NCBI GenBank assembly: GCA_030248215.1
Contig: JASANG010003810.1
Span: 372,001-436,000 of the forward strand
DNA length: 64,000 bases
Origin: Enoplolaimus lenunculus
Lineage: Eukaryota
Direction: 5' to 3'
The translations under genes and the position numbers were made by a program. Numbering within the stretch: position 1 is the stretch's first letter; every line of letters begins with the position of its first letter. A model generated the notes under the pieces. That model ran no database searches. It was not told the origin of the DNA and saw only the letters and a list, made by a program, of their open reading frames with translations. This document shows, piece by piece, positions 1 through 62,216 of this stretch.

Positions 1-555
1 CGCAATATCTTGCGTACAGCACATAAGATTTGAGGAGTTAGGGTGCTGGACACTGAAGCTTTTTGGCTTCAGGAGCCCGGATATTGAAGCTTTTTGGTTT
101 CACTGGCCCACATACTGAAGCTCTTTGGATATATTGGCCCCGATTGCGAAAGTTTTTGGCTTTAGTGTCCAGTACATTATCCCCTCTACAGTTTGTTGGT
201 GTTCGCATGATATTGTGGATGTTGCGTTAGACATTGTTGTGAATTTTAAGTGTTCAGGATCGAGACTGATTATTTATTGTGTATAGTATTGTTGAACCTT
301 GGAAACATGTGAAACTTGTTTAACTGAATCAAGGGTATTACTTTTTGTCTGGGAAGTAAGTAGAATTTCATTTCAAGGGTCTGTATAGATGATGTACGGA
401 TCACGTGTTCTGTCGCTCTTTTGGAAGATCAGTTAAAATCAATTAGATATTTTTTGATAATGGCAAAATATTTTGAAGGGAAAGGCAGAACACAGCCAAT
501 GTACGGGTGTTGTCAGTTACGAATTTGACATGGTATTCCAAGTTGGTTATTTCAG

Positions 556-2885
556 CGCAAATCATCTACAACAACATCAACGTGTCCACAAAGGTGAACA
601 ACCGTTTCAATGCGGCGTTTGCAGTCGATCGTTTGCGAATAAAACACAAATGGAGAAACACATGAAAACGCATATGCCTGAACAAAGTAACGGAGCTGGC
701 TCGGCGGCGCAGTATGTGGTTGTATGGGAGCAAGCTGGTTCGGTGCAGGTAAGTCAAAAGGTCGTGGATGGCTTGACATAGAGTTCATTCAAAGGTTGGT
801 TGCTACGCGCATACAAGACATAAAATGTTGGTACATGTTAACTTAATTTGAAAGTGCGATACTTAGAACTTGATTAGTGGGATATAGTTCATTATGATAC
901 TCTTTTTCCAATCTTTATTTTAATGATACCGGATTTTAGGAAGCAGTTGTTGTCTCTGACGGCCTGGCTGGTTCTGCGTCCGCAGGTGCAGCTCTAGCAT
1001 CACCATCGAAAACCGCTCCGATCTCACAAGTGGCCCGTCATCCGACCACTGCCAGTGTGCTCGGAAGCATTCCAGCTGGTCCTGGCAGCGCTACTAGTTC
1101 CCAAACAATAGCAGCGTCAAGTGCTGCCGCACCGAGTACTGTTGTTCATCAGTATCCTGTCACAGCAAATATTGGTGGAACTCCGTTGGGAACCGGAAGA
1201 TCCGGGGCAGTAACTGGATCTCAGCAAGTTGTCTCGTCCTCGTCGTTGATCGTAACCCCGGCTAGCCCAGACAAGAAAACAGCGACGGCAATGCTGGCCG
1301 GTGCAAGGTCCCCTACTGCAGCGTATTTGACGACTACTGTCTCTGGTAATGTTGGTGCTGGCAACGAACAGCAGTTTCAGCAGCGGACTGGAATAGGAAT
1401 TGGTAACAATTTTGGTTGCTGAATCTTGAATTTATATTATTATTGATGACTGCTGAGCTATATACAATTAATTGCAGCAAAATATTGTATTCCATAGAGA
1501 GAATGGCCCATGTAAAGAATGGGGGCGGTACGTTTTTCTGTGGACTAAAAAAGAGTAAGCTTAAGCTTTAGACTATTTTTTTTGCTTGGCCTAGGCTTAG
1601 GCTTAGGTTTAGGAATATGCTTATAATACTGTTTCGCCCCTGTTCTTTACATTGGCCTAAGTCATTTCAATACGAGGTGTGTTTTTTAATTTTCACTGCG
1701 TTCTTTGATCTGTGCGTGAAAACGCAAAAAACGCAAAATCTCTGGTATACACTGTTTATAGATACCAAAGTTCGTCCTGTCCCAATAGCGCCTTCAGTTG
1801 GAATGTTGCCTTCAACTAGCGGAACTGTAACTGCTGGACTGGTGGCAACGGCTGGAAATCAGTCCCAGCAGCAAACGGTTACTCTTGCGCCAGGAGGCAC
1901 AACGATGATCGATGGCCAACCAGTGCAGGTACGGAGGGTAACCTGAAAACGTTGCCAGCACGGGGATGCTGTCCTGATCTATTTTTGATCGGAAAAAATT
2001 TTGGTGCTGCGAGCGCAACGTTAAAACTTAGGATATTACTCAGTCCGAGGAAAATGTCAGTGTGTTGTCGTTAAAGTTTATGTTATAGTGTGAGTCCACA
2101 GTTTGAACTGAGAGTAAAATCAGGTTTGTGTATATGTGGGAAATGCGCGCGTTTGCAAGCATTTTGACACAGCGTAAAATTAATTTTAACTAAAAGGTCT
2201 TTTCTACGAATTTTCATATAGCCTATTGCATAATTTCATGGAATCTTTTGCTCACTTTTCGTGTTTTTTTGTAGTTTGTTGATGAACACGGTAATGTAAT
2301 TGAAAACTTCTCGGGCAACGAACAGTTTGTTGTTTTGGACGAACATCAACTATCTCAACCACAAGGACACGCTGCAGTGGTTGCTTCTACGACTACTAGT
2401 GGAGCGGTCGTATCAACTGGACATACTTCAGGTGCTGTCAGCACAAGTGGTACCGGAGCCTTGATACAAACCGCTGATGGACAGACTGCAGTTATCGGTA
2501 AACGGTTATGAGTCTTTGCGTGTTTGTTTTAAGTGAAATCAAATGGCCAATATGGTTTGAAATTCGGTTTCGTTTGCAGTAGTACTTTTTGCTAGTTGGT
2601 ATTACAGTCACAAACTAGCGAACTCCAGCTAACTTCCTCGGTTGAAAACTTCAGAGGGTCTATCAATAATTGATGATGAAAATGCATCACACGTTTGAGA
2701 TACGGATACAGTTTCCAGTTTAAAATTGTTTCTAAATGTGTTGTGTTATAGATCGCAATACTCTGATGGCGTTAACTGGAGGTCAAGATATCAGCGCTGG
2801 TCCGAACGAAGCAATTTATATTACTGAAGAAGACTTGCAAGCATTGGCTGCACAGCAAGGCGTTGTACTCAGTTATCAGCAGTAG
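556..2885 (+). CDS. C2H2 zinc-finger protein, 3' part (5' exons lie upstream of the window); exons 556-748, 940-1402, 1762-1928, 2275-2497, 2752-2885
   Basis: Exon 556-748 encodes [37 protein letters not shown] (end of one finger, TGEKP-like linker, one full C2H2 finger). All joins are GT-AG and phase-compatible, giving an S/T/A/G/Q-rich tail that ends at TAG 2883-2885. Confidence 0.85.
1505..1657. mobile_element. TTAGGC-bearing MITE, subfamily A copy, in a zinc-finger gene intron
   Basis: Termini GGCCCATGTAAAGAATGGGGGCGG and CGCCCCTGTTCTTTACATTGGCC; internal CTTAGG repeats; about 20 related copies in the window. Confidence 0.8.
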
Positions 2886-5800
2886 TAATTTTGGTTAATG
2901 CGTTTTCTCATCTGTGTCTCGTTGGATTGTTTTTGTTACTCTCTGATCTTAACCGATGGCGGGGGGCATATTCTAAATTTTTTACATTTTCTGTCAATAA
3001 AACTTAGTCCCGTCTTGTTTCGGGAGCTGGTTCCAGCACCGGCGTCACTGCAAACAGATTTTGGAGAAATGCACTTATTTGATACTGCGCTAAGTAGTAT
3101 CTTAAACTACGTATGTTTTGTCTACATGCGGTAATATATTACTGACCATTTAATTAGATGGTCGTTTTGCAGTTTGTGTTTTTGAGTTTCTATGGTTATT
3201 TTGTAAATTATTAATGTGCAAACGCTATATTCTACTGTTTTTTGGTTGCTAGTATACAAGTTTTCACTGAGAAATTTCAAACCTTGTGGGTTTATTCTGC
3301 CTAACGATTTTTCTGGGAACATCTATAAGTACCGGTTTTTTCAGTTCTGGGGATAGTGTATTAATAGTACTTTTAAAAGTCAAATTTTGGAACTTACGTA
3401 CTGCCCCTTTCAGTAAAATTGATGTAAATAATGATTCAATAATTAAAAAGATCATGATGGCTTGTCACTTAAAGACTTCTAGTATGTGCAACGCCTATTA
3501 CGGAAGCTTTTTAGGTTGTTTTGTTTGCAAATCGTTCAGATATTTTAGGGTCAACGGATTAATGGTTTTAATTTTATTGGAATTTGGTAGAAAGATAATT
3601 TTGATCCGAAACTACAACTTACGAAACCGCACCTATCTTAAAACATTTGAGGTTTTTCTTTGTAATCTAAAACTGTATTGGGTTAGTTTGATGTTATGCA
3701 ACACCTAATTTATTGTACGTAGTAATTCAGGTTTACACTTTAAACTTCTGTACTAATATCGTGAATGTGACTGATAGACGTTGTTTTGATTTTATTATGT
3801 AGCTTTGTGTTTTTAATTGTGAGTTGTTTTGACAATGTTATTTTTAGGGGCGTAACAGTAGGTTAAGCGTATTCCTAAGCCTAAGCGTTGCAAAAATATG
3901 TTCCTAAGCCTAAGCAAAAATGTAATCTAGAATCTAAACCTACTCTTGTATAGATCCACCAGAAACCTGGACGCTGCTTAAAGTAACATGGGTCGTTGTG
4001 TCTATGCAATCAGTTTCAGAGGAGTTTCTAGAATTGTGTAATTGAATGCTGAAGCTCCGTAAGTAGAGACAATAATTTGAAACATAGCGTGGCTTAGGAA
4101 TATGTTTGGTATATTGCCCGTGGCGGATCCAAAAATTTGTAAAAAGGGGCGGGGGTTCCGTGATATACCTGAATATGACCCCAATATAAACAAACATTAA
4201 GTATTGTGCACGGTTCCATCGAAATAACGCAAAAACTCAAATCCTCTTCCGGCATCCGAAGACTATAATTCTGTGGTAAACATTATTTCAAATTCCGTTT
4301 CCTGCAATAACTTCAATGTCTGATCCAATAAAATTTTGTTCCTCATGAAGCACTGGTATTTTGCTCTTAGCAATCATGTTTTACTGAATTTTGCGTTATT
4401 TTTAATTAAAATAAAATGATTTGCTGGATATATGAGCGACGTACTTGAAAAAATTTCACAATGATAAATCTTGGTTGCGATAACACTACTGGTTTAGCGG
4501 GAAAATTTATAATTTGGTGGAAAAATTGAAATTTGGCAAGAAAATTCAAATTTTGGCGAGACGTTTTCAACTAGATAAAAGCTAGTGACAAAACGTGACT
4601 CGACTGCCCAGTTATCATGGACCCCGCATTACTTTTTTTACGACAAGGTGCATGTGAACGCTAAATTTGTGATAGTTTCGAGGTGAAGATCCTAAACAGC
4701 AATCTAGGTATCGGAACAGAAATTTGCATTGTAAGTTTAGCGTCCCCCATCTCCCTGGATCCAACCTTGTGCAAACTTTATAAACGTTTATGGTGACGTT
4801 CTAGGCGTTTGTCGTAATTTTTAGGGCAACTGACGAGAAATATCTAAATTTCACGAACAAATACGCCTAAAACGAAATTTCTTGACAAAAATCTAGAAAT
4901 ATGTGCTACAATTAGCAAATTCAACACCTATTCTAGCAAATTCAACACCTATTCTAACAAACAACCTAATTTAACTTTGGTTTTCGGTTTCAGTAACGGA
5001 TCGCGACATTTGGCTTCTGATTCGACTTCGAATTTATCACCTACTATTTCGGCCCGGTCATTAGTTTTTGTTTTATACACATTGATCGCAGCACCTAAAG
5101 ACGTTGGCAACATCCTGTAGTAAAATATACAGGGTGTTCTGTTTATCACCGTTTTACTGATACCTTGCGGACGCAGCCGCCATTCATCGATTTATAAATT
5201 TACTACGCCGTTTAGCAACGCCTAAGCCTAACTTCGTAAGAACGTGCATATTCCTAAGACTAAGATTACGCCTAAGGCTAATAAAGAAAAGGGGCGTAAC
5301 AGTATTATAAGCATATTTGTTAAAGCCTAAAGCGGAAGTAAGCGTAAGCATGAGCGTAAGAACGTGCATATTCCTAAGACTAAGATTACGCCAAAGGCTA
5401 AAGCAAGAAAAAATTAGTCTAAAGCTTAAACTTACTCTATTGCAGTCCCAGAGAGAAGCGTTCCGCCCCTGATCTTTACATGAACCTTCGTCAGTATGAA
5501 ATCAGTATTGAGAGTCGCTCAATTTGGATTTAGAATTGTAATAAACTACTCATTGAAGTTGGAACATTAATGTTAAGGTAAATACTTCGCTAGTGATAAA
5601 TGCAGCGAGAAACTGAAATGGCAAGTTTTGCGCGATATTCCCAAATGTGTAGCCCACATCACTATTTGACCAAGATATTTTTAATTTTCGAACCAATGAA
5701 TGAAGAGGTTCGAAATTCAGCACATTTTCCGCACTTGATTTGTAATAGTTCTATTTCAATTATCAATTTTGAGATTCTCAATTGTAGACTGTCAGTTTAG

Positions 5801-6229
5801 GTGTTAACCAGGACTTCAGACCGTTTAGCTAAGCAGCTGGAAAAGCGGGCATACAACGGTGGCTCTAACTGGCGGCTGACAAATATGCAATACCCGACAA
5901 GTTGTACAGAGACTGTGTTTAGCCTAAGGTAGAAACTGAACCGTACAGGCTACGAAAATGACTGCATTAGATTCCATATTTTGGCAGCTGCTGTAATTAC
6001 ACCGCTTTGTTCAATCTGTTTTTTAGTGATTCAAGACGTGTTTGTGACATGCGGATGCATGGAGGCAAAATGAAACCTCATGTTAATGCTGTGCATCGGT
6101 AAAAACGTTGATGCATATGTAGTGCCTTCATATGCAGAAGCGGTAAAACATGGAAGAACCAAGATACATGTGTATAATGTTGAGGTTGTTATAAGGCATA
6201 AAACAGAAAAACTCAGCAGTGGAGGGTGA

Positions 6230-6310
6230 GGCGGCGTGGCTCAGTGGATAGCGCGCTGGACTGATAATCTGTCGACCGAGTTCGAAACCCCTGAGAGCGT
6301 CCCTCATTTT
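6230..6310 (+). ncRNA. tRNA-derived Pol III cassette inside TRIM LTR1 (not a functional tRNA)
   Basis: A box TGGCTCAGTGG (6237-6247), anticodon-like arm CTGGA-CTGATAA-TCTG, B box GAGTTCGAAAC (6278-6288), then TTTT (6307-6310). T-stem and acceptor stem are degenerate. Confidence 0.75.
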
Positions 6311-6650
6311 CAGCTGCTGAGCACTCAATTAAAAACTGTCGTACCCTAGCTTACCCAACTTATCACATGGTCACCACGACTGGACCGCAATGGCAAATGC
6401 CGCGGTAGAACCAAAAAATACATAAGTTGGCGGTCAAGGGACGACCTTGTAGGAAAACAGGGAGATGTGACATGCGGATGTATGGAGGCAAATAACCTCA
6501 TGCTGATGCCGTACATTGGTGAAATCACTGCTGCATATGTAGTGCCTTCATTTGCAACAGCAGTAAAACATGGAAGAACCATGATACATGTGTATAATGT
6601 TAAGGTTCTTATAAGGCATAAAAACAGAAAAACTCAGCAGTTGAGTGTGA

Positions 6651-6732
6651 GGCGGCGTCGGTCAGTGGATAGTGCGCTGGACTGATAATCTGTCGACCGA
6701 GTTCGAAACCACCTGAGAGCGTCCCTCATTTT
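6651..6732 (+). ncRNA. tRNA-derived cassette inside TRIM LTR2 (A box mutated)
   Basis: Same cassette as in LTR1, but the A box reads TCGGTCAGTGG; B box and TTTT are retained. Confidence 0.65.
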
Positions 6733-6906
6733 CCGCTGCTGTGAGGACTCAGAATCAAAACTATCGTACCCTAGCCTACCCAACTTATCACAGTGTTTTA
6801 ATGTAATTAATTTGTTAACTGTCAACTCGTTACAAACTTAACTGTCTTGTTATTGTTGCTATAACTTGTTTGATGATATTTGCTCAATCAAATTCCCTTC
6901 ACCGGT

Positions 6907-34615
<27,709 letters not shown>

Positions 34616-36214
34616 ATTCAATGCAACGAAATCTGCAGAAAATACTTAAACTCAATGCATTTATTGCAATTTTTGAATGTTACGCGGTGTATGCGTTTAG
34701 AGCGGTAATTATATCAAGACATGGTGATGGCGGTGGACAAGAGTATGCATCTAGAAATAACATTCTAATGCAATGCGATAGTCAGAAATATTTGTCGATG
34801 GTGCTGCCACAAATGATGTTAAATGAATTGGTTAGTTGTATACCCTTTTCTAAGCGTCAATATCGATGTTTGAGTACATGTAATGTGTGCAAAATATGAG
34901 TGCTGTGATTTGATACTGTGAACATTGTATATATAGTGTGCGGAATGTTATAGTAGGGTATTTAACACTTTCTCACATGAATGTATTCTAGGTCGTGTAA
35001 GTTTTAGGTTACAGCTAACAACCGGTGGAAGGTATTGATCATCACTACATAGGCCCATGTTACTTTAAGGGGCGTAAAGGTTTCTGGTGGGTCTATAGCA
35101 GAGTGGGTTTAGATATTAGATTACATTTTTTGCTTAGGCTTAGGCTTAGGAACACATTTTTGCAACGCTTAGGCTTAGACTTAAGCTTAGTAATACGCTT
35201 AATCTACTGTTACGCCCATAAAGGTAGCATTTACCACTACATACATACCATCACTACTCAGCTGGTGGGAGCTGTGACGTCTTGTGGAGGTTTTGCGTTT
35301 TATGATTCGTTTTTCGGAACTGTTGTGAATTTTTTGGTGTCTCCGTTGACCGTGTGGGCCAATATTACTTTTAGAGCCGTATTAACTCTAGACAGCATGT
35401 TGCTATGCCTAAGCGTTGAAGTAGGTGTTAATCCTAAACGTAAGCCCTGCTTAGCCCAAGCAAAAATAGTCTAAAATCAAGTACTACTCCAGTACAGTTG
35501 TGCGAGAAAACGGAACACGCCTAAGAGTGCAACATAAGGCTATCGTTGAAATTGTACAAAACAGTGAAAATCGACTACACAAACCGTTTAGATACAGTGT
35601 AAATTTGTGAAAAAATTTGTTGACTGTTGGTGCATCTGGTATTGGGTTTGTTTATACCTGATTTCGGAACCGTGGTGTGGTGGTATGTAAACGGAAACCA
35701 AACACTTGGGTAGCGTTATGTACGATACCATTCTGGGACCGATATAGGCATTTTCGACAAAATTGGTTGTCAGCTTTTTCAACTTTGGTTTTTGGAAGTA
35801 TGAAATTAGGCGAGTTGTTAGTGTTTAAAAAATTGAAAACTGAAATCAATTTGATTGGCTTAGATTCGTGCCGTTTCAGTTAAAACTCGATTGTATATAT
35901 TGGCTGCAGTTGTATGACGTATTCTAGTCGCTTGGTTGTACAATGTGTTGTGTGATTGGTCACATCTTAGCTATTTGTGTTAAAACTGTAATTTGCTGGA
36001 CCGTAGTCGGCCTAAATGTTGCCAGATCGAACTTGGGGAAGCGGTTTGTTTTGCGGTTTGACCGTGAATCAATAAAAGACTACGGTTAATCTTCAATATT
36101 TCCAAAATATGTAAGTTGCATAAAACAAGTCGCACAGTTTGTTGTTTTTGTACACTTTCCTGCAGATTTAAGATAAAGGCTTAGGTGTGAACTTGCCTTA
36201 GCATTTGGCATATG

Positions 36215-36394
36215 GGCCAATGTAAAGAACAGGGGCGTAACAGTGTTATAACCATATTCCTAAGCATAAGCCTAAGCGTAAGAATGAGCATATTTCTAAG
36301 CCTAACCCAAGCAAAAAATAATCGTCTTAAACTTAAGCTTACTCTATTTTAGTCTCACAGAAAAACGTTGCGCCTCTGTATCTTTACATGGGCC
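36215..36394. mobile_element. TTAGGC-bearing MITE, subfamily A copy (neighbours ~36835-37097, 37330-37500, ~38481-38647, 38707-38917)
   Basis: GGCCAATGTAAAGAACAGGGGCG...CTTTACATGGGCC with exact 8-bp TSD GGCATATG. Confidence 0.88.
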
Positions 36395-38393
36395 GGCATA
36401 TGTAAGCCTTTTTCTAAACACCTAACCGTAAGCATAATTGTTAGAAGTAGTTCACAAGAGCTAAGTGCTAGAAAGAAGTAGCGAATACTACAAGAACAAA
36501 AGTTGATCAACTCTTATAGCCGGATCTTCTTGAAGGCTACGGCTGTGCTTTTGCTTTGTATAATTCATTTATTTGTTTTTTTATAACAAATTGCTGTTTT
36601 TTATAACGGGTTTGTTTCTATGACACTGTAAAATTTATCATAATATATCATTTTGGTATTTTATACTGCATTTCGTCGGCTGAGTAAATTTTAATTATAG
36701 ATCGTCAATCAATGGTTGAGCAGTTCTTTGTTGGATGCTATTCTTAAAAATAGAACGGGAGACAGTAATGTCTTAGCTAGTGCGAAATTAGAACCGAAGG
36801 CAATGCGAAATGACATAAAACATTGGGGGAAATAGCCAATGTAAAGAACAGGGGCGGAACAGTATTATAAGCATATTCCTAAAGCGTAAGCCTAAGCCTA
36901 AACGTAAGAATGAGCATATTCCTAAGCCTAAAGCCTGAACGTAAGAATGAGCATATTCCTAAGCCTATAGCCTAAACGTAAGAATGAGCATATTCGTAAG
37001 ACTAAGCCAACGCTTAGCAAAAAGATTCGTCTAAAGCATAAGCTTACTCAATTGCAATCCCACAGAAAAACGTTCCGTTCTTGATCTTTACATGGGCTGG
37101 GAAAATTTATGTCGGTTTCACTTTAATCTGGGGCACATCTGCATGTACCACTATAAAATGTAACGTGGTGTGAATTTTGAAACAAAACGTATTTTACCAT
37201 TGTCTGGTGCAAGCGTACGTTGTCAGGGTGGTGCCGGATATCCGTTTCAGGTGAAATCGGTTTCTTTGCCGAGTAGAAATACCCTACAGTTTTTATGTTC
37301 AAAATTAGATTTATGTAGCCGAATTTTTTGGCCAATGCAAAGAACAGGGGCGGAACAGTATTATAGGCATATTCCTAAGCCTAAGTGGAACAATGAGCTT
37401 ATCCCAAAAGCCCTAGCCAAGCAAAAAACTAGTCTAAAGCTTAAGCTTACTCTATTCTAGTCCCACAGAAAAATGTTCCGCCCTGATCCTTACATGGGCC
37501 GAATTTTTTAGTATAAATATGCCGCAATTGTTTGATATGACGTTATATAAATATAATAGCGAAATCCAAAATCTGAAAAACCGCTGTTTTTAGTTTAGAA
37601 TTCTAGAAAATTTAGCGAATATTTGCATGACTGAATTGCATGGTGTAACGGAAACGGATTGTGATCAAAATAACGTTAACGCAAAACGGATATAAAATTA
37701 TGAAACAGTTTCAGAGATGTTTTATTATTTCGGATGAATTTCGTAATTATTATTTCATTTCGAATAGTTGTAGCATTCCTGTACTAACGGAAAATTGTCA
37801 GATATATACGTGATACATAACTAATTTTGAGCGTAAAAATAACGGAATTTCCATTCTTTCTATAGGTATATAACAACAACGAACACGGATTTTTGGCGGA
37901 AACGGATATCCGGTTACACCCTGCTGAAAAACTAAAATATCGTTGAAACGTTTAAACTTCGGCCATTTTTACTTTTAGGACCGTAACTTCAGATTAACCA
38001 TATTCCTAAACCGAAAGTGTAAAAATAATCTTAAACTGTGAGAAAACGGGGCGGCCCTGAAAATAACACGGGCCTGTTGCATGCTGCAGCTCGTATATAC
38101 AGGCACCTCGTATATTTAGAGCGTATGGGGGGCAGAGGGGGTTTATCCGCTCTGGAAAAATACCCCCTTGAAATTTTTCAACCTTGCCTGTAAGTCAACG
38201 AAAACCTTTGTATGCCCCTCTTGAAAATTTTCAGTCACCCTAGCGAGGTGAGCAGGCACTGGCTACGGGCTTACGACTGTCAGCTTGCTTAGCTATATTT
38301 AACGTTTTAGAAAGTTTTCCGGCTATGGATAATAAGTGAAATTATAACAGGGATGTTAGATTTTACTGTTTAAATTTAGAATTATACAAAATC

Positions 38394-41300
38394 ATGGCTG
38401 GAAAACAGCGATCAGCGCTGTTTGTATGCTTGGGTGAGTACCGAATTTTTACTGTTGACATCTCACGCATCGTAAACATTGGCTCATGTAAAAATCAAGG
38501 GCGGAACGTTATTCCGTGTGACCGGAATAGAGTAAGCTTAAGATTTAGACTATTTTTTTGCATAGGATTAGGTATAAGCTCATTTTTACGCTTAGGCTTA
38601 GGAATATGCTTAAACTACTGTTCCGCTTTCGTTCTATACATTGTCCGTAACATTTATACGCTGACAGAACGGTAACAAAGTATATGAATTGTTTGAAGCA
38701 GGCTCTGGCCCAAGTAAAGATCAGGGCGAAACGTTTTTCTGTGGGACTACAATATAGTAAAGCTTAAGGTTTAGATTAATTTTTTTGCCTGGCTTAGGCT
38801 TTGGGTTAGGCTCAGGCTTAATATGAATATGCTCATTCTTTACGCTTAGGCTTAGGCTAGGCTTAGGCTTAGGATTATGCTTATAATACTATTCCGCCCC
38901 TGTTCTTTACATTGGCCCATGCTCTTAAGCTTTATAACATTAATTTTCTTTTAGTTTCGATATTGTTTCACCACCGGTTGCGTCTTGGGTGGTAATGCTT
39001 ATGTCAAGGACGCTTTGCGTAAGTAGGGCCGTGATGTATATACTTTACTATGCCGAACGCCGCCGCATGCCTCCATGCGCCGGCACACGCCGTTATGCGT
39101 TGCTAACAAAACTGTATAGGCAAAATCTATTTGATGGCGTGTATCCAAGTTTTAATAAACCAATTTTATCGTGCCGCCGCCAGCGTCTCGCGGCGTCGCC
39201 TGGCGGGGCGCAGCGGCGTCTGGCGTCGGCGTGCGGCGGGGTTTGGCGTCGACGTGCGGCGGCGTTTGGCGTCGACGTGCGGCGGCGTTTGGCGTCGACG
39301 TGCGGCGGCGTTTGGCGTCGACGTGCGGCGAGTATAGCGCAACCCGTAGTGTTTTTGAAGATGTGCGTATAAGCATATGGAATACAATTCAGCGGCGGAG
39401 AGTTCCCGTCTTCGTGTTGAATAACAAGGATATGACCATTTCAGGCAATATTTGTCGGTCTCCTATTGCGGAAGCTTGTTTCATTAAAGCAGTTAAAGAT
39501 CGTAACGTCGAGCATGAGGTATTTGTATCCCTTTTGAATTATCGCCATTTACGTTGATGCACGCTTTATGATTGGTTACTACCTTAATGCCATACTCAAA
39601 TACGATTGGCTGTTGCAAATACTCGTTTTTGATTGACAAAGTAACCGCAACCTGTTGGCAACCAAACAGTTTGTTTTACTGAGTACGTGGAATCAAGCCG
39701 GAGTACGACTATCAAGTAATCAATCAGAAAACGCACAGTTTTATCAGACATGATTCCGCCTTGGGCTAGCCCAAGTCGTAATTCCGCTTTTGAGTAGCCC
39801 AATTCGGAATTGGGCTGAATTACGATTTGGGCTACGACATGTATACATTTATGCAGCTACACAACTGGTTATTAACCATATCTGGTCTGTAAAGGATTAC
39901 GGGTTTGAATAAAACAAAAATTAATATTTTAGTGGCGAATTGATAGCGCTGCTGTTATTGATTATCACGTCGGCAAAGGACCAGATAAACGAACGCTGAC
40001 AGCTCTTCAGAAACATGGAATTACTGATTATGATCATAAAGTTCGTCAGGTAAAGTATATAAAGTATTGGGTCAATGTTACTTTTATGGGCGTAACAGTA
40101 GATTAAGCGTATTCTTAAGTCTGAGCTTAAGCCTAAGCGTTGCAAAAATGTGTTCCTAAGCCTAAACCTAAGCCTAAGCCTAAACCTAAGCAAAAATTTG
40201 TAATCTAGAATCTAAACACTCTCTTTTATGGACCCACGAGAAACCGTTACGCCCCTTAAAGTGACATTGGCCAAGTTTTGCTTAATTCTAAAACGGGTCT
40301 CCGAGTGCAGCGAGATTGTGCTTAATATGGAAAAGTTTAACCATAGACGTCTTCCAATCCGACTGACCCAAAAGCCGAAGCCAATCAAATTGATCCGACC
40401 ACAATTGCAAAAATACAAAAATTGCCTGCGCGGAAATCAATCAAAGAACTTGAATCTTTTTTTAGGTTTAGCTTCAACATTATGATAATTGTGCTAAAAA
40501 ATTTTGCTTCAATTACATATCCATTAAATTTACTCACACACAAAAATGTTACCTTTCGATGGTCTGATTCCTGCCAGTAAGCTTTTGAACATTTAAAACG
40601 AATTTTTACCGCGGACCAATACTCAGACGTTCGAAATACAACAACCGATGTACGAATTACTAGTAGTATTTGTGAAATTTTTCCAACGGTATGTGACCAA
40701 ATTTGGTGAAAATGAAAATTAGCTAAACTACAAAAACCTGTACAATTTTATAACGCGCAGCTTAAACCAAACTGTACCGGCCAAATTTAAAACGAAACCA
40801 ATGGAGTTACTGGCAACTTTCGCCCCAATGAAAAACACCGAGTTTTATTTAACAGAGTCGAACTCTTTTACACCTGAACGTCGTCACCGGAATTTTAAAC
40901 TTAATTGATGTTCTCGCGCAGGTTTACAATTGATCCTTCGGTCCATGTTATTTTAAGGGGCGTCCAGGTTTCTGGTGGGTCTACAAACAGTAGATTTAGA
41001 CTCTTGATTACATTTTTTGCTTAGGCTTAAGCTTAGGCTTAGGAATTCATTTTTGCAACGCTTAGACTTAGGCTTAGGCTTAGGAATACGCTTAATCTAC
41101 TGTTACGCACCTTAAAGTATAAGATTGGCCAGCGCAGGTTTACGATTGATCCTTCAGTGGGCGAAAGCCGCATTGGGTTGCGGTCAAGTCGCCTGCTAAA
41201 CAAGGGTCAGTCGTGGATATGCGTTGATGTATTCAATAGATGTGGATAAGCATGCTAAGCTAAGCCCATATTCTTCAAATGCATGTAGCACCTATCACCA

Positions 41301-42728
41301 GTTAGTAATAGGTTTTCAAACTAACGAACTGCTGCAATTGCAGATCTCAAAATTTGCACAGTAGCCGAGAAAATCGAAAATAATAAATGTGCTGAATTTC
41401 AACCGCCACTATTCTCTGGTTCGCAGATTACAAGGCCTATCTTCAACTGGTAACAGGTGCTACACACATTTGAGAATACCGGCTCTAGATTTAGATACCA
41501 GTAATATACACTTTCGATCTAAAAAATTCGATTACATTTTAAGCTTCTAAAATTTAAAGCTTTTACAAAGGCGACTGATGCAGCGATTATTTTTAATATG
41601 AATAAATTTATGGTTAATTATTTAGTTAAAACCCGGAACCAGATGTCCATAGTTTCGCCGGAACCCTACATTTTGTAAAAATACGAAAAAGTCTACTACT
41701 GAAAATGACGTATGACATCCGACGAATCTGAGGCACTGAACGCGGTCCTTGCCATCAATAGTGCCCAGGTTTGTGTATAACGCAGCTTGAGTACTTGTAT
41801 AGCGTCACCACGCGCTGTTTCAGGTTACAACGGAAGACCTGAGGACATTTGATTACATATTTGGCATGGACGAAGAAAACATGTGGTATGTTAGTCGCTT
41901 TGTTTCATGAAAGCAGCTGTACATTTGACTAGCGGATTCATAAAAGAGAGGGGGGGGCGTACGTCCTCCGTCAGAAAATTTTTTGTGATAAAATGGTAAG
42001 ATAGCTTTTCAAATATATAGCATACGGTAAAAATTGCATTTAATAACTGTTCTGGATTCTCCGCGCCGCTGTTTGTTTGCTATAACAGCTAAAAATGCGG
42101 CGGATTTTTGTGACAGAATGAAAAAAGACTTGTTTTTGTGGGGGAAACTTCTCCGTTGTGTGGGTCATAAACAAAGCAATCTGCGTGACTGTCACTAAAA
42201 GATTCAACTTTTTCTGTTTCAGCGATCTGAAAAGTCTTGTGAAAATGAACGACGGAAAATCGTCAGCCAAATTGTTACTATTGGGTTCGTTTGATTCGGA
42301 AGGCGAATTAATTATTCAAGATCCGTATTATGTAAGTTTTAAATTTAAATGTTATTTTTCTTGAAGTATATAGTTGAAATAACATCAATTTTTAGTTATT
42401 TAGGCCCATGTAAAGATTAGGGGCGGAACGTTTTTCTGTGGGACTAGAAAAAAGTAAACTTAAGCTTTAGACTAATTTTTTTGCTTGGCTTAGGCTTTAG
42501 AAATATGCTTGTAATACTGTTTACGCCCCTGTTCTTTACATTGGCTGTTATTTACGTGCAGTGGTGTGGTTGGTTGTAGACTTGCTAATATGCGGTCATA
42601 CTCCTTGTGAGATTCTACCTTTTATGTATTTGTTGCAGGGAGTCGATTCTAAAGATTTTGATCGCATATTCAATCAATGCTCAAGATCGTGTGTCGGCTT
42701 TTTGGACTCAATATATGGAAAATTGTAA
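38394..42728 (+). CDS. ACP1: Low molecular weight protein-tyrosine phosphatase (~163 aa); exons 38394-38433, 39445-39518, 39933-40049, 41824-41885, 42223-42331, 42639-42728
   Basis: Spliced translation MAGKQRSALFVCLGNICRSPIAEA...WRIDSAA...HVG..PD.R...RQVTTED...FDYIFGMDEEN...LLGSFD....IIQDPYYG...QCSRSC contains the intact CLGNICRS P-loop and DPYY acid loop. All introns are GT-AG. Confidence 0.96.
40280..40612 (+). pseudogene. Decayed Gypsy/Ty3-type pol fragment (RT C-terminus/connection region) in ACP1 intron 3
   Basis: Broken reading frames give KELESF/LGLAS...NFASITYPLNLLTHKNVTFRWSDSCQ*AFEHLK, matching the Gypsy 'FLGLxxYYRxFIxNFAxIxxPLxxL..K...F.W...CQ.AF..LK' pattern, with stops and frameshifts. 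Confidence 0.75.
42403..42546. mobile_element. TTAGGC-bearing MITE, subfamily A copy in ACP1 intron 5
   Basis: Canonical TIRs; exact 8-bp TSD GTTATTTA. Confidence 0.88.
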
Positions 42729-49097: not shown

Positions 49098-52000
49098 GTC
49101 TTATGCGTAAGCCGACTTTACGCGAAACCCGCAGGAAAAAAGACGCCCATAAAAGTAATACTGGCCTAGAAGCGGTAGTTGCCTTGCCTCAAAAACCTAC
49201 AACTGAAATGTGAACAATCATCAAAATGCTAGCACAGGAACAAATTTCATTTTGAAAACGTTCATCGGACAGACAGTGGCGGCAGAGCGCATAGAAAATT
49301 AGTTGTGCTAAACTTCGGGGCGAAGCACCTAAAGAAGTGTGAAATCTCGAGATATTTGAACAAAAATTTGTATTGTAAGTTTGATTTTAACCCTGAAAAA
49401 AATTTACACTCGTCAGCCGATGGGGGGATGCATACCACCGCCCCCCTGCATCGCCATTTTTACTTATACCATGTGTTTATAACTAAATCGCCACACTACC
49501 AAAATCCTGTGACACAAAAGTCACAAGGTATGAGTCCCACAGGCAGCTCAGCTCGCAGTTTGGATAAAAATTTCAGGAGAGGCATCCAAGGATTTTGAAA
49601 TGAATCTATGATTGTGTATCAATCGGAGAAAAACATACCAAAATCTAACACGTAAAGATCTGCTTGATCAACAAGCTCTGGTTCGAGTTCAAGTGAAATT
49701 GATGCGTTTTCGCGCGGACTAAAAATAAACGAAAATACCCAATTCAGGGTTTCCACGCAAAATAATTTACTAATTTTCATTATCAAATTACATCTCACAA
49801 ATTGGTTATATCCTGTCTGTCGACGCCTTTTTAGCGTAAGACCGCTGAGCCCGTGGATCCACCATTTTACCTTTGAATTGTGAGGACAAAAGAACCTAAA
49901 CATAACGGATAAACATGTTGCAAATTTTTAGAAACGTACTTCCTTATCCACATTTTAGGCTAGTTCACACTTACCTGGTACCTCCAAAGAGATACAACTT
50001 TTCATTTGCGAAAATACTGCAATGTCTTCTTCTGGGTTTGGGCCCATCACCATGGATATATAGTTGCGTCCACACAGAGATTGCTAAAATAGTAAGCTTA
50101 GTTTATTTACCCCAATACCACCAACAACGATCCGTTTCAACCAGCACAAAGTCGCCAACACCAAGTTCTGGGCTGGCTGCTGCAAAACTTTGCAAACGCA
50201 CATGATAAACGCAAACATACCAGCATTTTTTATATAAGTAGTTAAGTAGCGGCCACTTAAAAAGCATTCCGCCCGGCCTCTACTAAAAATAATCCTGGTA
50301 CCGCAAATGATATGTGGATATGCGTGCCCATTGTTAAACACCACTCTCATCTATCGTTTACTCAAAAGAAAGCGTAATCAAGAAACGTGCTTACCAGGAT
50401 CAAAACAATACAGCGTATTATAATGCTCTTTTGAAATACCATTGTAGCCACCAAATATATACAGTTTACCATCACGGGTAACTGAAATGAATATTTATAA
50501 CAAACAAAATTTCAGTAGCACCAAAGGTTAGCAACCAAGCTTGATTACAGGTTCTTACTGAAATCACTGCCTTAAGCTTCAATTTTAAACTTTTCTTTGC
50601 AGCAAATAATCTCAAAACTCACAACCACGGCTTACATTTATACAACAGTGAAACTTCCTTTAACTATTGAGACTTATAACCAAAAAATACGATCAAAAAC
50701 TGTGCTATACCTAAAATGTCTAAATTTTTATAACTAATCTGGTATCTTCAGATTGCTATGCTCTAGGGTTATGTTAGTATTATTAAATTATATATAATAT
50801 AATATATATAATATATATACTTACATGCAGAATGTGACCTCCTCCCACACGGATTACACTGACTAGTTGATGCAGGAGTAACATGAATCCACTCTTGTGT
50901 GTCAACATTCAAGTACGAAAGTGTATCACAGTATACTTCGCGGTTCGAATGAAACTGGCCCAAAACATCTGACCGACCACCAAATATATACATACGATTT
51001 CCGATAGGGGTTCCGGTATGGAAATCACGAAATTGGGGTGGCGCTCCCTAAACAAACAGTTCAATTACATCTTACGTTTATGCAGTTTCCAGCTCAGTGA
51101 CTGAAAATATCTTATTGCATTCAACAATATAGCTTGAAACGGTTTCTGATAAAAAAGTTTAATCATAGGCCCATGAACAGTTTTTGCATATAACTTAAAA
51201 GTTTGTCGTTAAAAAACAATTCGCTTTATATACCATTACGTACTACCCAAATATAGTTGAAAAAGTTGTTTATATATAGTTTCACACAACAGGCCAAATT
51301 TTATTTATGATGAATGATACAGGACTTAGCACTTATACAAATATTACGCCCGAAAATAAGTCAGGTGGAGGTCGGAGTAAAACATACAAAAGTCCCGCCA
51401 CAATGAAACGCGTGCTGAACGCTTACTAGTGTTGGAAGATGTTGCCACAACATTGAAGTCAAATCCAACGCATATACTTCATTAGAAAATCGTTCAAACT
51501 AAAACAGTTTAAAGACCAATATTTCAAGTAGCAATTAAAGAATAAACAAATTACAGCATGCCAAGCATCAGTTCATTTGCCTACGAAAGTGAGTTTTTAG
51601 AATATAAACGAAAGATATAATCCAGATTGAAATTTTGAAATTAAAACAGCAATGGTCAGCACATCACATTAGAACATAACTATCATAAGCTGCAAAAGTT
51701 GAAACCACTATTTTGAGATAATACAGTATTTTGAATTCTGATACTGAGCCAAATCCTGTTTGGTTACTACCCTTACACGTAGGTACAAAATCTAAGAATT
51801 TCGTAAAATACATGGAAAAATAGCTCACATCTTCTTCAAATCCACCAAATATGTACATAAAATTGCCAATCACGCATGCAGAATGCCCATCGCGGGATGG
51901 CGGAATAGTACCGTTTGTTGCAACTTCAGCCCACAATAACGATTCTGAAACATATAAAAATTAAACATGCTACCGAAAACAAGGTTTCGTAATTCCCTAC

Positions 52001-52781
52001 ACAGCGCATCTATGATGAGCTGGAGTAGTTGCCGTGAGTCCATCGACGAGATGACAAGCTAGTCGATGCATTAGTCGCAAATTAAGCTCAACGTGAAAAC
52101 ACGTAAATATTCGCCAAACATATTCAGAGAGATTCTGCTACTGAATATAATTCAGTTGTCATTACCAACAAATGCACACCTTACCTGTATCAAATTGATA
52201 CAGCTTGTTACATGCGCCATCACTATCATTTCGACCTCCCCAAATGTAAACCAAAGAACCATATGCACATGCTGTATGACCATAACGTTGGTATGGTGTG
52301 CAGAAATATTGCTCATGAGTCATGTTCGGCACTGACAGAGCACGCCATCGCAACGATTCTATAAGATCAATTGCAAGACAACTTTTAACTAGAAGAGCCA
52401 TTCAACGGTCATAGGAAATAATTACCAGGTTGATAAAAAATTCAGAAACGCACCAGTGCCCCTTAAAATACGTTTTGCAATTCAATGCAGGTAAAAGTTG
52501 TACTTTTTTACGTAAATATGAAAGAACGAATATCTAATAATACAGCATTTTATGCTCGAAATGTTCTACAATATTTTCACACTTACATACTGTTCTACTA
52601 CATTCCGAGCGTAAGAAGACACAAAATTACCCAAATACAAAATATGAACGTCCATTGGCCTTGTCATCTCGTAGTCTTCGCTCGAACTGTAACCACCGAA
52701 ACTATATATTTTATTGCCAACCGCTACCGCAGCATGATTAACACGTTTTGGACCGCCCTCCAAGTGGGAAGACCAAAGCAT
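47604..52781 (-). CDS. KLHDC3: Kelch domain-containing protein 3 (CRL2 substrate receptor); exons 52781-52631, 52358-52185, 51944-51829, 51498-51427, 51047-50825, 50481-50395, 50083-49975, 49718-49639, 48723-48639, 47679-47604
   Basis: Starts MLWSSHLEGGPKRVNHAAVAVG.KIYSFGGY. Kelch repeats PYQRYGHT, PPSRDGHSAC, PQFRDFHT, PCGRRSHSA, PKPRRRHC. C-terminal BC-box DLYVLDFAPSLKVLC...LPWDLRWE. Ten phase-compatible GT-AG exons ending ...ERLEIRG*. Confidence 0.95.
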
Positions 52782-62014: not shown

Positions 62015-62216
62015 GGCTCATGTAAATATCAGGGGCGGAACGTTTTTCTGTGGGACTATAATAGAATAAGCTTAAAGCTTTAGACTCATTGTTTTGCTTG
62101 GCTTAGGCTTAGGCTTAGGAATATGCTCATTCTTACGCTTAGGCTTAGGCTTAGTGTAAGGCTAGGCGTAAAAATATGCTTATAATACTGTTCCACTCAT
62201 GTTCTTTACATTGGCC
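62015..62216. mobile_element. TTAGGC-bearing MITE, subfamily A copy
   Basis: Canonical TIRs; flanks GCGCTAGC/ACGCTAGC (7/8). Confidence 0.82.

Follow-up and report, generated by a model that had tools for sequence, protein, structure and literature searches.

Here we describe a high-copy miniature LTR retrotransposon (TRIM) from the nematode Enoplolaimus lenunculus that carries decayed tRNA-derived sequence in each of its long terminal repeats. The element occupies positions 6043..6792 on the forward strand of a 64,000-nucleotide stretch of contig JASANG010003810.1 (assembly GCA_030248215.1, contig positions 372,001 to 436,000); this whole stretch is referred to as the window, and all coordinates are given within it. 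We consider it probable, with good confidence, that this is a TRIM of the Helenus type whose tRNA unit likely serves as an internal Pol III promoter, and whose copies were likely inserted by the enzymes of a 5-base-cutting, full-size LTR retrotransposon.

The 750-bp element consists of two LTRs that begin with TG and end with CA, a 5' LTR of 325 bp (LTR1, 6043..6367) and a 3' LTR of 327 bp (LTR2, 6466..6792), separated by a non-coding region of 98 bp. A PBS that begins with TGG lies immediately 3' of LTR1 (6368..6385), and a PPT with 14 purines in 15 positions adjoins LTR2 (6451..6465); between them, a 12-bp motif at 6431..6442 recurs as an exact copy in a second TRIM family described below. 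The element is flanked by a 5-bp TSD, GTGTT, at 6038..6042 and 6793..6797, in which all five letters agree (chance at the composition of the window, 0.0013), and other lengths fit worse, with 2, 1, 2, 4 and 3 letters agreeing at 3, 4, 6, 7 and 8 bp, respectively. The longest ATG-started frames encode 67 aa on the forward strand and 78 aa on the reverse strand, and two open stretches of 111 aa and 95 aa within the element gave no Pfam match. The original prediction of a non-coding element of this length, with TG..CA LTRs, PBS, PPT and a perfect 5-bp TSD, was reproduced on re-analysis with its coordinates unchanged. Its estimate by eye of a roughly 10% difference between the LTRs is also matched by alignment, in which 293 of 330 columns are identical, with 29 mismatches and 8 gap columns, giving a K2P divergence of 0.096. 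The element is an old copy of a non-coding LTR retrotransposon.

Each LTR contains a unit derived from a tRNA, for which all four predicted parts could be located, namely the A and B boxes, the GAT-bearing loop and the TTTT run. The LTR1 unit (6230..6306, forward strand) comprises an A box at 6237-6247, an anticodon-like loop with GAT at 6261-6267 and a B box at 6278-6288, and is followed by a run of four T (T4) at 6307..6310, a candidate Pol III terminator. In the LTR2 unit (6651..6732, forward strand, including its T4 at 6729-6732) the boxes, loop and T4 lie 421-422 bases downstream of their counterparts in LTR1; its B box is at 6699-6709, and its A box at 6658-6668 is more decayed. A tRNA covariance model trained on 43 tRNAs, with Arg-TCT and Arg-TCG excluded, was run over the whole window and returned 13 matches up to an E value of 5. 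The LTR1 unit (23.5 bits, E 3.9e-6, nearest isotype Arg) and the LTR2 unit (16 bits, E 0.0025) ranked second and third, behind a match of 26 bits at 7642-7568 that belongs to the second family, and the fourth match scored 12.3 bits. The tRNA likeness of the cassette is thus recovered by this model, though neither ARAGORN nor Rfam calls the LTR units as tRNA, and the same model gives 72.6-77.3 bits to tRNA-Arg genes on which it was not trained. Rfam gave no 5S rRNA match in the element down to an E value of 10.

The LTR units are therefore decayed tRNA-derived sequence, and they do not work as tRNAs, because the T arm is broken, with only two of five pairs, ARAGORN is negative, and the anticodon letters vary among families and subfamilies. 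The proposal that the ends of the cassette can pair holds for the two copies when their folds are predicted; the fold, however, is a long hairpin rather than a cloverleaf, and its z score falls from -2.23 in LTR1, where 4 of 200 shuffles were equally good, to -0.99 in LTR2.

Comparison with known tRNAs suggests that the unit is likely Arg-like. A search of metagenome loci with a pattern that combined the unit's D arm with its anticodon stem and left the anticodon open gave 42 matches, of which 39 are called tRNA-Arg (34 TCT and 5 TCG), three are uncalled and none is Ile; a caveat on these counts is that the open positions were chosen with tRNA-Arg in mind. Among 133 distinct tRNAs from the matched loci, the LTR1 unit scored highest with Arg-TCT (76), followed by Arg-TCG (72) and Lys-CTT (69), with shuffles reaching at most 49; this comparison set is rich in Arg (30 of 133) and drawn from organisms other than the host, and the margin between Arg and Lys is small. 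The loop with GAT is present as predicted, but the frame around the triplet resembles tRNA-Arg and not tRNA-Ile. GAT looks like a drifted anticodon, and an origin from tRNA-Ile was rejected on the pattern counts.

The primer tRNA is less sharply defined, and the Trp-like label first given to the PBS was not confirmed. The PBS agrees at 14 of 18 positions with the 3' ends of Arg-TCT and Arg-TCG from other organisms, at 9 of 18 at best with the two Trp genes of the tRNA set, and, by eye, at 13 of 18 with the honeybee Trp end drawn in Fig. S2 of PMC10886601; tRNA-Arg therefore fits at least as well as tRNA-Trp. Three positions of this PBS (6372, 6380 and 6381) differ from most other copies, which fits the old age of this copy.

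The abundance of the element was read from contigs of three DNA runs of one study (X1, X2 and X3), aligned to the window at 80% likeness; the summed depth of such contigs does not equal copy number and is usable as an order of magnitude. In X1 the flanks have a summed depth of 17-21, the middle of the element reaches 5,700-6,400 and the LTR bins 5,000-39,600, and X2 and X3 give a profile of the same shape, which implies, to an order of magnitude, hundreds of internal regions and still more LTRs. At position 6043, 56 X1 contigs depart into differing flanks (agreement 0.34), which marks a sharp 5' boundary, and contigs of other copies span the middle, joining an LTR end to the LTR that follows. 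With a depth hundreds of times that of the flanks and many differing insertion sites, the claim that the element is multi-copy is well founded.

The depth profile also places the tRNA-derived unit within the LTR. Summed over both LTRs, X1 depth is about 32,000 over the unit, 38,000-62,000 over U3 and about 13,500 over U5; since its depth does not exceed that of U3, the unit moves together with the LTR and is not mainly a free SINE. The repeat boundary at 6043, moreover, sits 187 bases upstream of the unit. On these two observations a free tRNA-derived SINE (SINE2) was rejected, and the concern that the tRNA-like part might occur mostly on its own is answered; contig boundaries represent the best-supported loose ends only and would be compatible with a minority of free SINE copies. 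Neither a 27-nt nor a 24-nt motif of the unit had an exact match among metagenome or viral contigs. The lower depth over U5 than over U3 and the unit could also be expected if there were no retrotransposition unit at all, and the structure were two tandem SINE-like repeats of greater length separated by a spacer, its TSD arising by chance. The TG..CA ends, the correctly placed PBS and PPT and the agreement of all five TSD letters speak against such an arrangement, as do the repetition of the middle itself, hundreds of times by depth, and the same layout in a second family. This reading is largely refuted already, and we regard it as extremely improbable.

The second family is represented in the window by a decayed, tRNA-bearing TRIM copy on the reverse strand (7512..8024) that is related to the element at 6043..6792. 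Its 3' LTR (7763-7512, 252 bp) carries its own tRNA unit (7642-7568, E 4.6e-7) and a run of five T, and its 5' LTR ends after the B box, with U5 and PBS missing. An additional fragment of the 3' end of an LTR of this family lies at 5790..5876 on the reverse strand (nhmmer E 1.4e-7 to 7511-7775) and has high contig depth. The relationship between the two families is seen in their internal parts, for which the local alignment beats all 500 shuffles, and in the 12-bp motif, whose second copy lies at 7786-7797 on the reverse strand; the window holds two matches to this motif against 0.04 expected, and none of 100 shuffles reaches two. Both families retain the A and B boxes as well as the T run, while their U3 regions cannot be aligned outside short stretches. 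The tRNA unit of the second family is best matched by Val(TAC) and Thr(TGT), with a score of 69 each and shuffles at most 50. Its LTR ends at 7515 and 7761 open into 109 and 101 differing flanks in the contigs, and its X1 depth rises to 130,000 against 20 in the flanks. The flanks of this copy agree at 4 of 5 letters for 5 bp (chance of at least four, 0.019), 2 of 4 for 4 bp and 2 of 6 for 6 bp. Both readable insertions, one of them with only four of five letters agreeing, thus point to a TSD of 5 bp.

The host was initially taken for a probable nematode from the letters, and a gene next to the element bears this out. This gene, PPIP5K/VIP1 (6907-33470, forward strand), has at least 18 exons, and among the best 120 of 1532 matches to its exon at 17192-17392, Trichinella and Trichuris come first (80-82% identity, 113-115 bits), followed by Romanomermis (89% identity across 70% of the query); every other named animal among these stands at 61% or below. 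By this ranking the host likely falls in clade I (the dorylaim nematodes), distinct from the species named. The element ends 114 bases upstream of an in-frame ATG (6907) that leads into the first conserved PPIP5K exon, and AG dinucleotides occur in the gap at 6793-6925 only at 6916 and 6919; two arrangements fit, an intronic element with the exon spliced at 6920, or a gene that begins just behind the LTR. A weak match to the C/D-box snoRNA snoZ101 on the reverse strand (7108-7188, 30.7 bits against a gathering score of 44, E 0.0041), with a terminal stem and D box, is antisense to a PPIP5K intron and overlaps its acceptor. The window further contains the end of a C2H2 zinc-finger gene (461-2885, forward strand), a likely low-molecular-weight phosphatase gene (39159-42361, forward strand) and a Kelch-repeat gene (50772-52401, reverse strand), and its GC skew tracks gene direction.

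Other repeats are found in the same stretch. Self-BLAST revealed an interspersed repeat with short TTAGGC/GCCTAA runs, of which there are 11 double units in the window, with sites at 1500-1660, 3833-3995, 5220-5486, 10046-10166, 20850-21036, 35054-35231, 36200-38900, 40070-41130 and 62015-62216; we take the TTAGGC hexamer to be the nematode telomere repeat. A further high-copy repeat, with X1 depth to 7,900, lies directly upstream of the element at 5654-5761 and has a second copy at 22315-22422. A decayed tandem array is present at 24530-25340, and a long CAA/CAG run at about 34270-34480 reads as poly-glutamine.

The anatomy of the element, together with the precedent of the plant TRIM Cassandra, suggests a model for its propagation. 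Pol III would bind the A and B boxes and start near 6230 in the LTR1 unit; termination at the nearer T4 would leave a transcript of about 80 nt, and a polymerase that continued to the second one (ending at 6732) would produce about 500 nt of RNA, with a unit at both ends acting as the R region. We propose that a host tRNA, Arg or Trp, primes at the PBS and the PPT primes the second strand, and that the reverse transcriptase of a helper copies the RNA before its integrase inserts the DNA. The unit itself was likely acquired when an ancestral LTR captured a tRNA-Arg-headed SINE or pseudogene.

The conservation of the unit is consistent with its use as a promoter. It is the best-kept part of the LTR, with changes between LTR1 and LTR2 in 4 of 85 columns as compared with 33 of 245 in the remainder (Fisher p 0.028), and the two families have each retained the boxes and the T run; gene conversion or chance within one insertion could also explain the low divergence. 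Against Pol III use, the T4 in the 5' LTR would truncate most Pol III transcripts, and the A box of LTR2 is decayed. On the sense strand, runs of four or more T occur at only two sites, each 3' of a unit, and the 418 bases between the two T4 runs are free of T4, which is true of about 2% of 1272 stretches of equal length in the window. Given the base composition of the element, 45% of shuffles are likewise T4-free, and T4 depletion therefore fails as proof of Pol III read-through.

The principal alternative is an ordinary TRIM driven by Pol II, in which a SINE landed in the ancestral LTR as a passenger and the element is transcribed either from a TATA-like sequence within U3 or by read-through from the host. 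A putative TATA-like hexamer, read from the letters, is located at 6190..6195 on the forward strand, 35-40 bases upstream of the LTR1 unit; it has a retained counterpart in LTR2 at 6610-6615 and might be used by Pol II, to which a T4 within the 5' LTR would be harmless. LTR1 also has an ATTAAA at 6328-6333, but this has been lost from LTR2. Pol III transcription is expected for Helenus elements and is described in section 4.1 of PMC10886601 as unproven for the published families, which leaves room for a Pol II promoter. It is harder to see why a passenger should be the least-changed part of the LTR, or why its boxes and T run should be kept across two diverged families whose U3 regions are mostly unalignable, and we consider this alternative rather unlikely.

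A different role for the unit would be to give rise to a small RNA that primes reverse transcription of the element itself or serves the host, making the element more than a promoter parasite. The C. elegans element Cer7 reportedly encodes its own primer, and in the present element an Arg-like character is shared by the unit and the best-fitting primer, the two ends of the unit pair with each other, and seven bases near its 3' end are complementary to the internal motif at 6437-6443. Seven complementary bases within 98 are near chance, however, the 3' end of the unit does not spell the complement of the PBS, and no complementarity of this kind was found by Kojima in the Helenus elements treated in PMC10886601. 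With a longest match of five bases between unit and PBS, self-priming was rejected, and a small-RNA function as a whole appears very unlikely.

The Pol III model, like any model for a non-coding element, calls for a helper. A domain search of 140 of the 144 frames of at least 76 aa in the window, excluding four low-complexity frames around 34,000-34,700, revealed no retroelement domain. Two types of full-size element could provide the enzymes; both encode gag and pol, unlike this TRIM, and are likened to it here by description only. BEL elements make TSDs of 5-6 bp. Those of the Tas type have been recorded in nematodes including Trichinella (PMC5177903 and PMC3118150). Gypsy elements of the Mag lineage have 5-bp TSDs in 20 of the 21 consulted rows of Table 1 of PMC3286476, with a PBS for Leu, Ser or Arg, and the same paper records the lineage in C. 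elegans. Because Mag-lineage elements make 5-bp TSDs, as this TRIM does, its TSD does not exclude a Gypsy helper, and Arg is among the Mag primers. From these features we would give a Mag-type Gypsy about an even chance of being the helper, and a Tas-type BEL/Pao element an appreciably smaller but still substantial one.

A more far-reaching scenario can be drawn from the two families, which we advance tentatively and think doubtful in its entirety. They would belong to a clan of Pol III-driven TRIMs, the first of the phylum, that was born independently in clade I nematodes and is mobilized by a BEL/Pao integrase; its families would keep one internal packaging module while swapping U3 and tRNA heads, the latter resembling Arg in one family and Val/Thr in the second, and would have seeded thousands of T4-terminated Pol III genes of about 80 nt beside host genes. 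The consulted sections of PMC10886601 tie no TRIMp3 to BEL/Pao.

The element belongs to Helenus, also known as TRIMp3, and is thus of a kind already known. Helenus embraces every TRIM whose LTRs contain sequence derived from a tRNA (Kojima, 2024; PMC10886601, sections 2.1 and 4.2), and its described members are shorter than 1000 bp, with TG..CA LTRs, a PBS, a PPT and, in each LTR, a decayed tRNA unit that is often followed by a T run; several families can share one genome, in hundreds to thousands of copies. The element shares this plan: at 750 bp it is below the limit of about 1000 bp, it has two LTRs and no protein-coding region, the PBS at 6368 and the PPT at 6451-6465 lie at the two internal ends, and the A/B-box units of its LTRs score far below intact tRNA-Arg (23.5 and 16 bits against 72-77). 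Its 5-bp TSD falls within the range of 4-6 bp, and the element is repeated in the genome.

Within Helenus, the original prediction of an independent, undescribed lineage stands in part. Eleven short motifs were compared with the sequence file of PMC10886601, in which line breaks may hide matches; ten were absent and one 9-mer occurred once, while the control was found 48 times. By eye, no likeness beyond the A and B boxes was seen in parts 1, 5, 6 and 7 of its Data S1. The absence of a match by motif comparison is in keeping with a separate lineage, but because the definition of Helenus covers any tRNA-bearing TRIM, and Kojima (2024) expects many independent origins, it is to be seen as a new member and not as a new class. 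The search, which covered mainly open-access literature and had Repbase and Dfam outside its scope, gave no description of a nematode TRIM that bears tRNA sequence; the passage of Gao (2016) on this subject mentions unpublished nematode TRIMs, without tRNA. The animal hosts in Table 1 and Table S1 of PMC10886601 span six phyla, including wasp, fish, bivalve, brachiopod and nemertean lineages, and no nematode.

Three modest points are therefore new: the nematode phylum, a sequence unlike the published families by motif comparison, and a 5-bp TSD in an animal Helenus. With the first, the animal phyla in which tRNA-headed TRIMs are described rise to seven. The contrast in TSD length, already anticipated in the original prediction and read here from two insertions, is that 113 of 115 rows for animal Helenus in Table S1 of PMC10886601 give 4 bp and the other two are undetermined, whereas all five letters agree at 5 bp here and only one of four at 4 bp (two of four in the second family). 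This exception to the published rule hints at a different helper integrase. The LTRs, at 325-327 bp, are also slightly longer than the longest published Helenus LTR (323 bp; PMC10886601). With at least two related high-copy families that have an internal motif in common, this is a good genome in which to look for the helper and for the cis-signal that it recognises, a question left open in PMC10886601. Copies of such TRIMs, furthermore, inflate the annotation of tRNAs and small RNAs.

Two other groups of TRIMs carry Pol III promoters in their LTRs. Ajax, a nemertean TRIMp3, resembles the present element in being an animal TRIM with a piece of a Pol III promoter in its LTRs and 5-bp TSDs, but its promoter derives from 5S rRNA, its primer is Leu and its LTRs are 154-163 bp long (PMC10886601). 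In Cassandra, too, each LTR has its own terminator and promoter for Pol III; here these are derived from 5S rRNA, and Cassandra differs further in its restriction to plants and in its Met PBS (PMC7215508); its transcription from the unit of one LTR to that of the other has been shown (cited in PMC10886601). Membership of either group was rejected, as the element has no 5S match and its unit fits the tRNA model instead. The nematode element supports the view that miniature LTR elements have captured Pol III promoters repeatedly and independently.
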